DNA of 10,417 bases, from assembly GCA_046861655.1 (NCBI GenBank), contig JBHIAI010000061.1:1-10417 (forward strand). The letters run 5' to 3'. This DNA comes from Fidelibacterota bacterium. Lineage in GTDB: Bacteria; Fidelibacterota; Marinisomatia; Marinisomatales; S15-B10. The first letter of the stretch is position 1; each line of letters opens with the position of its first letter. Under the pieces are notes generated by a model that searched no databases, was not told the origin of the DNA, and worked only from the letters and a program-made list of their open reading frames with translations. The position numbers and the translations under genes were made by a program. Shown piece by piece: positions 1-6,479 of this stretch.

Positions 1-491
1 CAGGTTGAGGTCGTAACGGAAATGTGCTCACCCTGGACGATCTGGGAATGGCAACTGGTACACCGGAGTTCCTTTCCCCTGCGGAGTTTGATAAGGTGGG
101 GCCGGTGGTCGAAGAGAATCCCTTCCTTGAAAGGTACGACTCCCTCCAGAAGGCTCTCCTCGTGACATCCGGAGCGCAGACAGCTTGCATCCTCGATTTC
201 CGCCCAGGGCTTGCTCTTCTTGTAGACACCGGTAAAATAGTTTACCACCATGGAAATGGCGGTGAACTTGCCCCTGACATGGGACTTCCAGCCGGGAGGG
301 TAATGGCAGTCGGTACAGGTAACCGATGAATGGGTGGACGTCTTCCAGGCCTCCACGTACGGCTCCATGTAATGACACGTGGAGCAAAAACCGGGACGGG
401 AGGTCCACTCAGCGGCGCCGTATAAGATGATACCGAGCAGCACAAGGCCGCCAAGAACGACCCCCGACCACCGGAGCAGGGTCTTATTCAT
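1..491 (-). CDS. NapC/NirT (NrfH-like) membrane-anchored multiheme cytochrome c, 3'-partial (runs off the window start)
   Basis: Not in the ORF track; translated by hand from ATG at 491: MNKTLLRWSGVVLGGLVLLGIILYGAAEWTSRPGFCSTCHYMEPYVEAWKTSTHSSVTCTDCHYPPG...SCLRSGCHEE...FDHRPHL...LRCTSCHSQIVQGEHISVTTST. It has an N-terminal TM helix, the NapC/NirT-type pattern TS.P.FC..CH.M....W..S.H..V.C.DCH, three CXXCH and one CX4CH, and no stop before position 1. Confidence 0.9.
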   Translation of the reverse strand, partial: MNKTLLRWSGVVLGGLVLLGIILYGAAEWTSRPGFCSTCHYMEPYVEAWKTSTHSSVTCTDCHYPPGWKSHVRGKFTAISMVVNYFTGVYKKSKPWAEIEDASCLRSGCHEESLLEGVVPFKEGILFDHRPHLIKLRRGKELRCTSCHSQIVQGEHISVTTST

Positions 492-554
492 GGTCCAACA
501 TCCCCTGCGTCCCGGCCGGTCAGACTGTGTCGCTCGTGGGAATGGCCCCCTCCA

Positions 555-1148
555 TCATTCATCCATGTCCGGAGGATACGGATGGGCGATCTGCTCCAGG
601 AATTCGTCGAACTTAAACCCCTTGAAGGTAGGGCTCTTTTCGTTGTGGCAACCCAAGCAGGTTTCTTCATCCGGCATCAACAAGCCGACTTCGGCCCTAT
701 CGAGGGTTCCTTCGTGAATCTCCTCCATGGTGGACTTGGACTTGTACGCACTCCCCGGACCGTGGCATGCCTCGCATCCAACCGCCTGCAGTCCTTCCAT
801 CCGTCTCACCGCCTTCCTGGCTTTCCTGTCTTCCGGATCCGGATTCCAGAAGGCCTCATCTTTGACCTCGTAACCGCCACTGTCATACCCCGTTGTGTGG
901 CACACCAGGCACTCCGGTGCCTCATGGGCCGGACCTTCCAACTTGATTCCTCTGGCAATCTCCGCTGCTTCCTCGGTCTTTAGTACCTCGAAGGCACCCG
1001 CATGAGCACTTGCTTCCCACACTTTGTACTGGGCGCCCTTCTTACTGCTGGAATGACAGATCTTGCACTTCCGGGAGCCCACGTATTCGAAATCCTGGGA
1101 CCAGGCGAGACCCCCTGTCATCAGAAGAATCACCAAGATCTTTGTCAT
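555..1148 (-). CDS. Periplasmic tetraheme cytochrome c, c554/c-prime-like family
   Basis: ATG at 1148 follows a strong RBS (AAGGAGGGATCT-ATG), so it is preferred over the track start at 1187. Signal peptide MTKILVILLMTGGLAWS; YVGS.KCKICH...W..S.HA pattern; four CXXCH (CKICH, CLVCH, CEACHGPGS, CLGCH). Confidence 0.88.
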   Translation of the reverse strand: MTKILVILLMTGGLAWSQDFEYVGSRKCKICHSSSKKGAQYKVWEASAHAGAFEVLKTEEAAEIARGIKLEGPAHEAPECLVCHTTGYDSGGYEVKDEAFWNPDPEDRKARKAVRRMEGLQAVGCEACHGPGSAYKSKSTMEEIHEGTLDRAEVGLLMPDEETCLGCHNEKSPTFKGFKFDEFLEQIAHPYPPDMDE

Positions 1149-1171
1149 AGATCCCTCCTTATGGTTTTGAT

Positions 1172-1663
1172 TCATCCCCCCAACCACTCGTCAATATCTT
1201 CCGGGTCGTGGCAGGCGGTGCACGCCCTGGTTTCCCCGGCTACTCCCCCGTCCAGATTCTCCCCGTGGCACCGGGCACAGTCCTCAAATCCCCGGCTCCG
1301 GGCCTGATTACCGTGAAAAACGGTGCTGTCGGGAGTCAATAACCACACCCTGGGATGAGGATGCCCGCTGGGTCCCCCTTCGTGACAGGTGTAGCAGGAG
1401 ACTCCACTGGTGCCTCCCTCGTAATCTTCCCCGTGGCATCCCTGGCATCCTCCGATTCCCGCGGATACAATCCTGGCCATGTGAGAATTGTCGTTGCCCG
1501 GATCCAGCCACGACCCTGGATGGACAGTGGGCTCCCCTTCCTCCGTACAACCCCCCGAAAGAATGAGAACCAGGGACAGCACAACAGTGCAAAATGGAAA
1601 GTGCAAATTGGAAAGTGCAGAATTATCCAGTATCCCTCGTGTTTTCACTTTTGCATTTTTCAT
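1172..1663 (-). CDS. Putative lipoprotein tetraheme cytochrome c
   Basis: Four CXXCH (CQGCH, CYTCH, CARCH, CTACH), with two similar units C..CHGE.[YL][ED]GG. Hydrophobic stretch VVLSLVLILSGG-C resembles a lipobox. Start is uncertain: ATG 1663 chosen because the track start at 1795 overlaps the upstream gene by about 100 nt. Confidence 0.82.
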   Translation of the reverse strand: MKNAKVKTRGILDNSALSNLHFPFCTVVLSLVLILSGGCTEEGEPTVHPGSWLDPGNDNSHMARIVSAGIGGCQGCHGEDYEGGTSGVSCYTCHEGGPSGHPHPRVWLLTPDSTVFHGNQARSRGFEDCARCHGENLDGGVAGETRACTACHDPEDIDEWLGG

Positions 1664-1683
1664 TTTACAATTTGCCTTTTGAA
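1588..1683. repeat. AT-rich inverted arrays of degenerate 7-bp tandem repeats
   Basis: 1588-1622: tgcaaaa tggaaag tgcaaat tggaaag tgcagaa. 1642-1683: ttttcac ttttgca tttttca ttttaca atttgcc ttttgaa, whose reverse complement gives similar units (tgcaaaa, tgaaaaa, tgtaaaa, ggcaaat). Confidence 0.75.
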
Positions 1684-1691
1684 ATGAGCCG

Positions 1692-2525
1692 TCAATGGCA
1701 CCGCAGACAGGTGCCCGTCTCCGGTTCATGACAGGCCAGGCACACCTCTGGTTCATCCAGAGCCGCAGCGGCGTGTCGCCCTCCATCCTCCACAATCCCG
1801 GGCAATCCCACCCAATCCGAAAGATTATGATCCATGGGCATCACCGGATTCTGCCTGTGGCAGTCCTGGCAATAGGTCCGAATCTCGTGACAGGTCGAAC
1901 AATCTGTGATGCCGCTGCGGGCGTCAAACCCGTGATTGAAAAGATAGGAAACCGGATGGATGTTTGCCTCAAATTGCTGAAGCTGGTGACAGTCGTCACA
2001 GGAGGCTTGAGTGTGACAGAGCATGCAGTTTTCTTCGGTAACCGGGTTCACCCGGGATCCATGAACCCACATCCAGTCCGCCATGTGATTATCCGGTCGG
2101 ACCGATGAATGGCATGACCGGCAACCGGCTTCCTCCCACACGGGGGGGGCGGCAAGACCGTCATCCGCATAAATGGTTCCGTGACAGTCACTACAATCGG
2201 GCCGTTTTGCCAGGTGAAAGAGGTGAGAAAATACCGGGCCCGATCTTGAGGGTCGCTCCCGGTAGGTCATGGGATTCTCCGGGTCGGCATGGCAGGCAGA
2301 ACATTCATCCGTGGCCAGATCCCCGTCATGGCATTCCAGACAAGATTCCTCTTCCGGCAGGAGACGGATATCCAGGGAAACGGATTCCTCGACCCCTTCG
2401 TGGCACTGGGTACACTCCAGTTCCATCTCTTCCACATGAAGCTGATGAGGAAAGATAATTCGGTCCCGCTCCTGGGCACTTAGGAGGAAAACGGATATCA
2501 ACATCCAAAGACTACAACGTCCCAT
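1692..2525 (-). CDS. Secreted 11-heme cytochrome c (cytochrome c3/c7-like repeats)
   Basis: Eleven CXXCH counted: CTQCH, CLECH, CSACH, CSDCH, CRSCH, CMLCH, CDDCH, CSTCH, CQDCH, CLACH, CLRCH-stop. c3-like F.H..H motifs (FPHQLH, FSHLFH) and P..H...[WY]...HG repeats. Signal-like N-terminus from ATG 2525, which overlaps the upstream gene's end by 14 nt. Confidence 0.9.
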   Translation of the reverse strand: MGRCSLWMLISVFLLSAQERDRIIFPHQLHVEEMELECTQCHEGVEESVSLDIRLLPEEESCLECHDGDLATDECSACHADPENPMTYRERPSRSGPVFSHLFHLAKRPDCSDCHGTIYADDGLAAPPVWEEAGCRSCHSSVRPDNHMADWMWVHGSRVNPVTEENCMLCHTQASCDDCHQLQQFEANIHPVSYLFNHGFDARSGITDCSTCHEIRTYCQDCHRQNPVMPMDHNLSDWVGLPGIVEDGGRHAAAALDEPEVCLACHEPETGTCLRCH

Positions 2526-3669
2526 GGATCGCCAGTCCGCCCCTCCCGTCAAGATCATAGTAGGGGTTTTTGTTCACCTGTCCAAACACCCGCACAACCA
2601 CCTTCTTCAGAGGATTCCACGAAAGCCAGCCGTACAGTCCAGTGGCCGTCCCGCCCGGGCGGGAGACAAGATCCCCGTAGTCCACGGCGTTTACAGTAAG
2701 CTGAACCCCCGAGGTAAGTGAAGAGAATATTTTCTGTTTGGTTCCCGCTCCGCCCCCGAACAGTCTCCTGTCTCCCTGGATTCCGGCCAGGGCTGTAAGC
2801 TGAAATCCCTTCACGGTCAGCGTACTTGAGACATAGGAGGCCGGATTGTCGCCCATCCGGTAAATGAGTTGATTCCACCAGGTGACGCTGCTACCCACTG
2901 GCGACATAGCACCCAGGGTTACCGCCGCAGGCACAACCGTTTTTTCCTTCACCCACGGGTAGGGGCGGGCAGTGGGCAGCCGTTTATTCCTGACGCCCAG
3001 CCTGAACCGCTGATTACCCACATTCGTTGACGCTGATAGACGAACATAGTGAAGGACATTATCGGCAAGATTCCAGGCCATGGCTGTCGAAATCCTTACC
3101 TTTCTCAGCACAACCCCGTTCCAGCTGGACCCCACGTACGACACCGTCCCCAGGGTGTCATGGTGACTCCAGGCAGTGACAGAAAAGTTCCTTCCAGGCT
3201 TTCCTTTTCCCCAGGAAACCAGAAAGAACGACCTCTTCGTGACCGACGTGTCGCTGAAGTCTGATACTGCTGGGAATCCCCCCAGAAGGGTCACCGATCC
3301 AAACCTCTCTGTATCCACTGTGTACTCCGCACCGTCAACCCGGGTCTGAACCAGCCCGCTCCAGTGGGTCATTCTTCCTGCTCTCAGGGTATGAGGTCCC
3401 ACGGTCAGTCGCGCCAGCATATCGTGTATTCGGAAAGGATTGCGAAATCGGAAATTCTCCGAGCCGTATTCGAAGTGGGTCTGCAGGCTCAGGATCGACC
3501 CGAAATTCTGCCTGTACTGTCCCCAGACTCGCCAGTGCACTGCAGTATCTGTGGAAACCATATGGAGCCGCGGTGTGATGATGGTGGAGGAAATGGAGAT
3601 TTCTGGTTCCTCCGCTCCAAGGACGGTGAGAAAAGCGAGAAGAGGGAGAACCCTTTCGGGTTTCGACAT
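2512..3669 (-). CDS. Putative outer-membrane beta-barrel (porin-like) protein
   Basis: About 385 aa with no Cys. Signal peptide MSKPERVLPLLAFLTVLGA (alternative starts 3693 and 3717). Many alternating amphipathic segments (VHWRVWGQYRQ, LSLQTHFEYG, TLRAGR..VDGAEYTV, VRISTAMAWN, GLYGWLSWN, VVVRVFGQVN) and a C-terminal strand GGLAIHGTL. First gene of the cytochrome run. The fold is inferred, not computed. Confidence 0.65.
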   Translation of the reverse strand: MSKPERVLPLLAFLTVLGAEEPEISISSTIITPRLHMVSTDTAVHWRVWGQYRQNFGSILSLQTHFEYGSENFRFRNPFRIHDMLARLTVGPHTLRAGRMTHWSGLVQTRVDGAEYTVDTERFGSVTLLGGFPAVSDFSDTSVTKRSFFLVSWGKGKPGRNFSVTAWSHHDTLGTVSYVGSSWNGVVLRKVRISTAMAWNLADNVLHYVRLSASTNVGNQRFRLGVRNKRLPTARPYPWVKEKTVVPAAVTLGAMSPVGSSVTWWNQLIYRMGDNPASYVSSTLTVKGFQLTALAGIQGDRRLFGGGAGTKQKIFSSLTSGVQLTVNAVDYGDLVSRPGGTATGLYGWLSWNPLKKVVVRVFGQVNKNPYYDLDGRGGLAIHGTL

Positions 3670-3968
3670 GGTGTTGGTGGACAGCAGTTTCATCCTGCTA
3701 TTCGCCTGCTCCAGCATCGCGTGGAGGCTGGTATACCCTCACCGGAAGTTCGGAAAATATTGAGGCATCCAAAAGAAGAATTCATGATATAGGCCTCTTC
3801 TATGACTCTTCCCAGATGGGACATCCTATCCTGTGTCTTTCAGGGATTCGTGGTTGAATTCCCTGGGGGCTCCATCGTAAGGGCCGAAGAAAGGCGCAGC
3901 GTTTGAGAAAAGTCGGATTGTACCATGGGGGGAAATTACGACCTGGACATGGATGGGCAAAGATATAC

Positions 3969-4154: not shown

Positions 4155-4211
4155 TGGGCAGGTCCATCGAAAATCATTGATTCATTTACCGTTGGGACCT
4201 AATTTGCAAAT

Positions 4212-4225
4212 GGATAATAGGGTCT
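4212..4225 (+). promoter_or_regulatory. Candidate operator GGATA-N4-GGTCT (copy 2, upstream of the first Rrf2 gene)
   Basis: ggata-atag-ggtct lies between a -35-like TTGCAA (4204-4209) and AT-rich taataa (4226-4231), about 60 nt before the Rrf2 start, a typical autorepression position. Confidence 0.4.
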
Positions 4226-4283
4226 TAATAACGTTTATTTGGTTTCTTCTTCCCCTTCCGGAAAAGACCCTGAGGAGTCATCC

Positions 4284-4723: not shown

Positions 4724-5290
4724 ATGACACAAAAACCGTCCCCTCCTCCCTCGTCCCATAAGCCTCGACCACCGCTGCTGAACCGGCTTCCCCAGGATCA
4801 TCTCATCGCCACCTTGATGAGGGAACATCAAGACATAGTCAAACTGCTGGATAGGCTCCGGACCCTGACAGAAAAGCTCGATTCCCTGGAATCTCCCCAG
4901 GACAATCCTGGTCTTCTGGACCGGCTGTCCGAAGTGACAGAGAATCTCCTGGAGGTGGAACTCCACCACGACCGCGAAGAAAAGATCCTCTTCCCGGCCC
5001 TAGAAAAACAGGGTATCACCGACTCTCCCTACGTCCTGAAAGAAGAACACCAGATCCTGCGCGATATGAAGACCAAGTTTCTTGAGGCCCTTAGCCAATC
5101 CAGAAAGAAGGATTTCCCTGCCGTAAAAGCCAGGCTGGGTTACTACGGCCGAAGCATCGACCGCCTGGTCCGAAAACATATCGAAACGGAAAACACCGTC
5201 CTTTTTCCCGCGGCACTGCAGGCCATCCAGGATGAAACCCGCTGGAAAAACCTGAAAGCCGAGAGTGAGAAACTGGGAAAAAAGGCTTGA
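4724..5290 (+). CDS. Hemerythrin-like (HHE cation-binding) domain protein
   Basis: RBS GAGGA before ATG. Two HHE-type repeats: LMREH...ELHHDREEKILFPAL and LKEEH...KHIETENTVLFPAA. Confidence 0.88.
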   Translation: MTQKPSPPPSSHKPRPPLLNRLPQDHLIATLMREHQDIVKLLDRLRTLTEKLDSLESPQDNPGLLDRLSEVTENLLEVELHHDREEKILFPALEKQGITDSPYVLKEEHQILRDMKTKFLEALSQSRKKDFPAVKARLGYYGRSIDRLVRKHIETENTVLFPAALQAIQDETRWKNLKAESEKLGKKA

Positions 5291-5306
5291 CTGCCCCTCA
5301 GGGCTC

Positions 5307-5765
5307 TTGTTAACTTTAATAAGATTTACGGGGGAATATGCCATCCAGGCCATGATCTACCTGGCCGAACAGGACTCCGATGAACCGATAATGATTGGCG
5401 AGATCGCCAAGGCCTACGGCATTCCCCAGCAGTTCCTCGCCAAGATCGTGCAGACGCTGGTCAAGCACCGCCTCATGGTCGCGGTCCGGGGTCGAAAAGG
5501 TGGGGTGAAACTGGCCCGGGATGCCTCGGAAATATACCTGCCTCAGATTGTGGCAGCCATCGAAGGTCCTGCGCCGGAGGAGGAACCCTGTGTGTTCGGC
5601 CTGGATGCCTGTTCTGACCAGGAGCCGTGTCCCCTTCACCACCAGTGGACAGTGATTCGGGACGAGATCCGCCATATGCTTGAGCATGAGGACCTGAAGA
5701 AATTGGCCAAACGCGTCAGTGAGAAGCACCTGGCCATGCAAAATATTCTTCCGGTCGAAGGTTAG
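5307..5765 (+). CDS. Second Rrf2-family transcriptional regulator (start uncertain)
   Basis: TGEYAIQAMIYLA, FLAKIVQTLVK, RGRKGGVKLAR, IVAAIEG and C-X6-C-X5-C-X2-H (CVFGLDACSDQEPCPLH). No ATG at the expected position; TTG 5307 chosen (alternatives GTG 5265, ATG 5352). Confidence 0.88.
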   Translation: MLTLIRFTGEYAIQAMIYLAEQDSDEPIMIGEIAKAYGIPQQFLAKIVQTLVKHRLMVAVRGRKGGVKLARDASEIYLPQIVAAIEGPAPEEEPCVFGLDACSDQEPCPLHHQWTVIRDEIRHMLEHEDLKKLAKRVSEKHLAMQNILPVEG

Positions 5766-5791
5766 TTCTTTTCGGCCGGACTGCTTCTTGA

Positions 5792-5929
5792 AAGTTGGTG
5801 CCCGGAAGGTGACCCTCTTAACTCACCTGCAAGCACCCCCCAGCATGTACTTGCCAACGCAGCTCCATCCGGGGGCGCCCGTCTTCGGGTGGAAACTGCG
5901 GACCTACATGTCACACCGGGCACCAACTT
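5792..5929 (-). ncRNA. Candidate structured non-coding RNA of unassigned family (multibranch fold, possible pseudoknot)
   Basis: Perfect 14-bp terminal inverted repeat aagttggtgcccgg (5792-5805) / ccgggcaccaactt (5916-5929), plus gtgac/gtcac. Internal stems 5829-5836/5847-5854, 5858-5867/5890-5900 and 5878-5881/5886-5889. Loop-loop complementarity 5837-5843/5869-5875. Strand inferred from G-U wobbles and is uncertain. Confidence 0.55.
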
Positions 5930-5951
5930 CATTTTTCTCCCTCAAAACAAC

Positions 5952-5979
5952 TTGATTTCATTCCCCGGACGCGTAAATT
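5952..5979 (+). promoter_or_regulatory. Putative sigma70-type promoter for yqeY-cvpA-dnaG
   Basis: TTGATT-N16-TAAATT, about 30 nt upstream of the YqeY start codon. Confidence 0.45.
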
Positions 5980-6011: not shown

Positions 6012-6479
6012 ATGTCCCTGTACGATCGTCTCCAAACAGCCATGCAAAAGGCTATGAAGGAGGGCGAGCGGGAGAAAGCAACAACCCTTCGAACCCTCAT
6101 GGCCCGCCTGAAAGAAAAAACCATCGACAAAGGAAAAGACCTTACCGAAACAGAGGAACAGAACGTTCTTCAGCAGGCCGCGAAACAGAGACGGGAAGCT
6201 ATTGGCTTCTTCAAAAAGGGTAACCGGGACGACCTGGTCCAGGCAGAAACCCGGGAGCTGTCCATTATCGAATCTTACCTCCCCAAACCTCTTTCGTTGG
6301 AGGACCTGATCAGGATCGTGGAGGAAATCATAAAAGAGACCGGGGCCGAGACCCAGAAGGATATGGGTCGCGTCATGCCGGCGGTCATGAGGGAAGTATA
6401 CGGTCGGGCCGATGGGAAAATGGTCCAGGAACTGGTAAGAGAAAGACTTTCCCGGAATAACCGGGATTCTCAACAGTAG
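6012..6479 (+). CDS. yqeY: GatB/YqeY domain protein
   Basis: MSLYDRLQTAMQKAMKEGE, KQRREAIGFFKKGNRDDL..E..EL.II..YLPKPLS, and KDMGRVM.AVM....GRADGK.V...VR..L motifs; RBS GAGG. Confidence 0.93.
   Translation: MSLYDRLQTAMQKAMKEGEREKATTLRTLMARLKEKTIDKGKDLTETEEQNVLQQAAKQRREAIGFFKKGNRDDLVQAETRELSIIESYLPKPLSLEDLIRIVEEIIKETGAETQKDMGRVMPAVMREVYGRADGKMVQELVRERLSRNNRDSQQ

Follow-up and report, generated by a model that had tools for sequence, protein, structure and literature searches.

Excerpts of the reports on s-SodF of Streptomyces (PMC3919588) and RsaC of Staphylococcus aureus (PMC6765141) describe 3'-UTR-derived sRNAs of metal-regulated mRNAs. Together with portions of PMC8034643, PMC9438474 and PMC12596718, they treat s-SodF, RsaC and CcsR as made, or acting, as 3' trailers, and cover anti-Shine-Dalgarno pairing by C/U-rich segments. 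We analyzed a window of 10,417 nucleotides from a Fidelibacterota bacterium (the whole stretch of DNA under study), in which a structured RNA lies between the end of an Rrf2-family gene (position 5765) and the start of yqeY (6012), the latter followed by cvpA and dnaG. As far as the excerpts go, the element resembles s-SodF and RsaC in its place downstream of a gene linked to metal or redox control, in a 93% complete genome where Hfq was not found, and in that most genomes show no conserved promoter for the RNA alone. It differs in that the parent gene is the regulator itself, and in that a long stem joins its two ends at a fixed length. Its sequence relation to these two RNAs was assessed through Rfam. 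The likeness to the CcsR or cuckoo RNAs, as portrayed in part of PMC8034643, consists of copies behind a small regulatory gene and of C/U-rich, anti-Shine-Dalgarno-like loops. Unlike those RNAs, the element has neither the two-hairpin module nor the CCUCCUCCC motif (absent from our alignment), its partner and neighbor is Rrf2 and not DUF1127, and the phylum is a different one. The iscR-iscS intergenic structure of E. coli, from an excerpt of PMC12533949, is likewise strong and immediately follows an Rrf2-family gene, whereas the genes downstream of our element vary and are not isc, its loops are conserved and it has no Rfam match. The RNA occupies the 3' region of its parent gene and is better conserved than the sequence on either side. 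It is most likely a variant of the 3'-derived regulatory RNAs, with a predicted function.

The element and its downstream flank are built as follows.

5750..5780, plus strand: hairpin across the rrf2 stop, with a weak T tract
5790..5931, plus strand: conserved structured RNA of about 140 nt, its ends placed from the closing stem
5792..5805, plus strand: closing stem P1, 5' arm, from the stem alignment
5807..5828, plus strand: hairpin P2, with a C/U-rich loop at 5813-5822
5829..5854, plus strand: hairpin P3, with a C-rich loop at 5834-5849, in close homologues only
5858..5900, plus strand: hairpin P4, long and variable, with 18 pairs (4 of them G-U) in the source genome
5916..5929, plus strand: closing stem P1, 3' arm, from the stem alignment
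5952..5979, plus strand: promoter-like motif of yqeY, downstream of the RNA
6012..6479, plus strand: yqeY, first gene of yqeY-cvpA-dnaG; a neighbor and not a constant partner of the RNA

The helices proposed in an initial annotation of this DNA can all be read in the sequence, including the closing repeat, a perfect 14-nt inverted repeat (5792-5805 with 5916-5929). The folding energy was matched by none of 200 shuffles on either strand (z of -6.33 on the plus strand and -3.81 on the minus strand). P2, P3 and the variable P4 are common to five close homologues, whereas the other two sequence types fold differently. The P2 loop is predicted to be open in these five (0.90-1.00) and its CCCUC is kept in 8 of 10 aligned copies; the C/U-rich segment is predicted to be paired in the copies of genomes G009 and G014. 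Segment 5809-5813 of P2 has an alternative partner in 5910-5914. A scan for terminator-type structures returned one match, the hairpin across the rrf2 stop, against 1.4 in shuffles; this hairpin is possibly a pause, partial terminator or processing site. Elsewhere in the window, the minus strand of 1-3717 holds a cluster of multihaem c-type cytochrome genes plus a 400-aa frame without a Pfam match, and an Rrf2-hemerythrin-Rrf2 arrangement follows the cluster on the plus strand.

Homologues are found in 10 genomes of two families (f1 and f5) of Marinimicrobia/Fidelibacterota. BLAST against 61 genomes matched 13 at E <=0.1, with six long matches, the others being short chance words. A second sequence type came from family f5 on reading upstream of yqeY, and the first covariance model gave matches in 8 of 151 genomes. 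An unfiltered search (E 0.002-0.008 in 7 kb) uncovered a third type in G009 and G014, where two divergent copies stand in series behind rrf2, about 260 nt apart. With its position, length, shared stem core and C/U-rich segment, this third type can with good confidence be regarded as homologous. A further variant (L094) was recovered from a metagenome contig, and the named element-bearing records L115, L121, L126 and L134 are labelled Marinimicrobia or Fidelibacterota. No new true copy was obtained with a second covariance model in samples of 40, 151 and 40 genomes, and the first model matched 2 of 151 genomes of a phylum-wide sample, both already known. Weak covariance-model matches were dropped, as 11 of the 11 inspected overlap long frames. 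Pattern scans of metagenomes (39 loci, 3 with the gene context) and of genomes (35 loci, 5 with the context) left the other loci to be rejected as chance; a match in G303 was discarded, being inside a 550-aa reading frame.

Three further loci are recorded here as observations. A copy on contig C79 of G056 (L176, 1401-1511) is without the 5' stem arm, its remainder being conserved. Contig C57 of the same genome (L140/L141) is 99.6-99.9% identical to contig C57 of G006 despite the different families; it is likely mis-binned and was left out as independent evidence. Between the two RNA copies of G009 (L182, 525-770) lie some 260 nt with a short open frame, similar in G014, and this frame may be a gene remnant.

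The sequence of the element is under strong selection. Between the source genome (G000) and G003, the 51-nt C/U-rich core is identical at 50 of 51 positions, loops included. The neutral yardstick for this pair is given by proteins that are 60% identical and by fourfold sites that agree at 50 of 156, with silent sites saturated. Both loops are far better conserved than the neutral rate would allow, and the core is kept through stems and loops alike. A small protein gene or type I toxin mRNA was considered and rejected: the plus-strand frame is open in the five close homologues, shifts in two and is not shared with the other sequence types. The coding explanation fails because the silent positions are invariant and the frame shifts.

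The closing stem is maintained by compensatory changes, the evidence for which the initial annotation had called; they are double-sided at 9 of the 14 pairs. Over the ten intact copies, read on the plus strand, covariation as high was reached in 0 of 500 shuffles, a comparison to be read with the caveat that related sequences can beat shuffles of the type used; it amounted to 0.55, against at most 0.26 in slid controls. The inner positions of the stem are nearly invariant. The distance from one invariant stem core to the other stays at 120-128 nt in all 10 intact copies, despite their divergent interiors.

We consider it highly likely that the plus strand, in the sense of rrf2, is the one on which the RNA would be made. 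It had originally been read as an independent minus-strand RNA with a loop-loop pseudoknot, an orientation to which the G-U wobbles of the two small 5' hairpins P2 and P3 lend themselves, and the raw folding energy is lower on the minus strand in 6 of 10 intact homologues. However, z is better on the plus strand in all ten, closing-stem pairing is kept in 95.7% of 140 cells on the plus strand against 86.1% of 137 on the minus strand, and no promoter-like motif lies within 80 nt of the minus-strand start in 10 of 10 copies. The pseudoknot fares no better. Its register is formally pairable in four of five close homologues, with 6 Watson-Crick and 1 G-U pairs in the source genome but 4 and 3 in G001 and 3 and 4 in both G003 and L094, and it fails in G006. 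The supposed partner strand (5869-5875) is contained in P4; it folds within a separate hairpin on the plus strand in the source genome, and in G003 and L094 it does so on either strand. No double-sided change keeps the interaction; it is unsupported because the loop side is invariant, the partner changes to suit P4 and G006 is broken. The minus-strand model as a whole is very improbable. The proposed GUGAC/GUCAC extension of the closing helix holds in part: it is present in four of five close homologues but competes with a local hairpin, and its pair probability on the plus strand is 0.01 against 0.96 for that hairpin.

The assignment to no known RNA family was borne out. An Rfam scan of the window has no match over the element, and narrow scans of three homologues gave at best 10-14 bits with unrelated eukaryotic or viral models. 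ARAGORN predicts 0 tRNA genes in the window; tmRNA, RNase P RNA and a cut-off SRP fragment are on other contigs of the genome. With regard to a bacterial Y RNA, Ro60 (TROVE, PF05731) was not found in the 93% complete genome. No description of the RNA was found in our literature search; motif-discovery papers could carry the motif in their supplements. The RNA family is real, conserved, undescribed and of narrow range.

6S RNA (RF00013) deserves comparison, as its ends are also closed by a long stem and it has an apical hairpin. The sole 6S match in the genome is a 185-nt candidate on contig C66 (9248-9432, minus strand; L023, 1501-1685), which at 45.4 bits stays slightly below the Rfam cut-off of 46.4; it adjoins a frame that we take to be an HflX-like GTPase. 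If the element were a second 6S-like RNA, short and imitating an open promoter, this would account for the closing stem, a switchable inner helix and the apical stem, which are reminiscent of 6S topology. According to an excerpt of PMC8876501, truncated forms of 6S-1 RNA continue to cycle in vitro. The element, however, is about 140 nt where 6S RNA is about 200, gave no 6S match in the window scan or the three narrow scans even at E up to 10, and coexists with the separate candidate; its inheritance with rrf2 would also be left unexplained. We consider this explanation extremely improbable.

A relic mobile element, or a DNA-level structure with terminal inverted repeats, would agree with the repeats themselves, with the two copies in G009 and G014 and with the two damaged copies (in G010 and on contig C79 of G056). 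The source genome, however, holds one copy by BLAST, stem scan and covariance model alike, which answers the initial concern that the element might be a MITE: it is not. The interior is strongly constrained, the stem has 15 G-U against 2 A-C positions on one strand, and viral contigs searched with one core pattern gave 0 matches. Only the slimmest probability attaches to a mobile origin.

The presence of the RNA follows that of one rrf2 gene. Families f1 and f5 are represented by 19 genomes, of which 10 carry the RNA together with the rrf2 orthologue and 9 lack the two; 6 of these 9 reach a completeness of only 62-81%, and related genomes do not count as independent. We examined 30 yqeY loci: the RNA is there in 7 of 7 with rrf2 upstream and in 0 of 23 without it, so the RNA tracks rrf2 and not yqeY. 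In G009 and G014, rrf2 precedes two genes that we take, from reading their translations, to be coxB-coxA-like, rather than yqeY-cvpA-dnaG, and the RNA stays with rrf2. The RNA is not universal even in this Rrf2 subfamily: 22 rrf2 orthologue loci of other families are without it, as are the close rrf2 paralogue loci that were checked. The source genome has seven Rrf2 genes and one RNA. A scan for long closing stems placed one downstream of rrf2 at 10 of 35 loci (nine carriers and one weak) against 4 of 35 control windows. In G010 (L031, 1349-1421) the RNA has a 77-nt deletion between two 8-nt direct repeats and rrf2 has an internal TGA; gene and RNA appear to be decaying together. Since all copies found sit downstream of one Rrf2 gene and are inherited along with it, the description of the RNA as independent is doubtful. 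In the Rrf2 tree, where G009 and G014 are labelled non-carriers, the carriers do not resolve, and a single origin is neither demonstrated nor excluded. The RNA is probably a non-coding partner of the Rrf2 regulator.

The gene itself and the signals ahead of it are given below.

5287..5316, plus strand: putative sigma-70-like promoter of rrf2, TTGACT-18-TAACTT, placed by motif position
5321..5332, plus strand: left part of a palindromic box AGAY-N6-RTCT that precedes rrf2 orthologues
5334..5765, plus strand: rrf2, Rrf2-family regulator (Pfam PF02082), 5'-truncated

The linker of the protein has three Cys and a His, and from what is known of the family we presume that the three Cys bind an iron-sulfur cluster. 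Its orthologue L139 passes the superfamily model TIGR00738 only and is below the IscR, NsrR, RirA and CymR cut-offs; the nearest solved relatives are distant (E 9e-11). Compared with G001, 29 nt are missing at 5332/5333, which takes away the ribosome site and the start together with the right half of the box and the first seven codons. What is left has a short ATG frame, out of frame with the gene, whose end overlaps the next in-frame ATG (5352). The loss is either a real lesion or an assembly error; an intact rrf2 paralogue is on contig C110 of the source genome. The rrf2 promoter is below the threshold of our promoter scan, which found 0, and a similar motif, judged by eye, is upstream of many rrf2 orthologues. 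It is likely the source of the transcript that carries the RNA. Most of 22 rrf2 orthologues have the AGAY-N6-RTCT box at a distance of 3-8 nt upstream of the start (for example, contig C110 of the source genome, 3326-3341), and its position just before the start suggests self-repression. It is likely the autoregulatory operator of an unnamed Rrf2 subfamily, as judged from motif placement. A box-like word at 4211-4226 of the window precedes the second Rrf2 gene. The box matrix is unspecific genome-wide, with 65 of 292 matches intergenic, equal to the 22% non-coding share; therefore, no regulon was derived.

We tentatively propose, with confidence just short of even, that the RNA is released from the rrf2 transcript and acts in trans through its anti-Shine-Dalgarno-like segments. 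We infer that the plus-strand RNA of about 140 nt would be made as a 3' trailer of the rrf2 mRNA, perhaps with its own promoter in some genomes, and would be cut out and then stabilized by the 14-bp closing stem. Its C/U-rich segments would pair in trans with G-rich ribosome-binding sites, without Hfq, making the RNA the post-transcriptional arm of an Rrf2 response to an iron-sulfur or redox signal. Promoter-like motifs 12-18 nt before the stem, seen in four copies, are at chance level. The RNA is not a leader of yqeY, since yqeY has a promoter-like motif of its own past the 3' arm of the closing stem in 6 of 7 loci. A Shine-Dalgarno motif is present at 841 of 1666 crude start sites, about half. 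The best duplexes with these 1666 start regions of the source genome were no better than those of shuffled seeds, and long seed matches were below shuffles (2 vs 5.8, 6 vs 17.4 and 3 vs 7.9). Enrichment of haem or Fe-S genes among seed matches was weak, with a best p of 0.02 among nine tests, and neighboring start regions were not preferred as pairing targets. Three candidate target sites, in what we take to be the rpoA/rplQ junction, a ferredoxin oxidoreductase subunit and a NarH-like subunit, were rejected as not conserved. Further observations also count against the pairing model: the C/U-rich segment is predicted to be paired in the G009 and G014 copies, the fixed length and the 51-nt invariant core exceed the needs of a seed, the 22 rrf2 orthologue loci of other families do without the RNA, and transcription might already stop at the hairpin across the rrf2 stop, short of the element.

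The fixed length and broad invariance would fit a protein-binding RNA, in form, at least as well as trans-pairing. Such an RNA would be a fixed-size, ring-closed scaffold that possibly titrates its own Rrf2, a nuclease or an RNA polymerase factor. The constant span around divergent interiors, the near-invariance of the inner stem, the conservation of the core in stems and loops alike, and start-region scans in which pairing targets were not found are all consistent with it. Yet the inner fold differs among the three sequence types, box-like words occur in the RNA at no fixed place (palindromic matrices match any hairpin), and the RNA is intact here though the rrf2 start is lost. We consider a protein-binding role unlikely. 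That the RNA from the regulator's own transcript binds and titrates an iron-sulfur Rrf2, as feedback and not as mRNA pairing, is quite improbable.

The constant place of the element, always directly behind the Rrf2 gene and on its strand whatever follows, together with the strong closing stem, could also point to a cis-acting 3' stability or boundary element of the rrf2 mRNA, by which the rrf2 part would outlast, or separate from, the downstream genes. The iscR-iscS structure offers a precedent, as excerpted from PMC12533949. This cis stability role explains the position and not the loops, which are conserved far above the neutral rate where a barrier needs none. The paired copies of G009 and G014, with about 260 nt between them, the lack of a conserved U tract past the stem and the other rrf2 orthologues without the RNA also speak against it, and we judge such a role rather unlikely.

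The element is a candidate regulatory RNA family in Marinimicrobia/Fidelibacterota, where our literature search found no papers on such RNAs; its narrow range (10 genomes, two families) limits its general interest. Its tie to one Rrf2 subfamily offers a context that lends itself to testing, namely control by iron-sulfur or oxygen in a genome with many multihaem cytochromes; in two relatives, the RNA adjoins cytochrome oxidase genes. If the RNA pairs with mRNAs, it would extend Hfq-free control by C-rich sRNAs to a new phylum. If it instead binds Rrf2, it would represent a new type of transcription-factor feedback.
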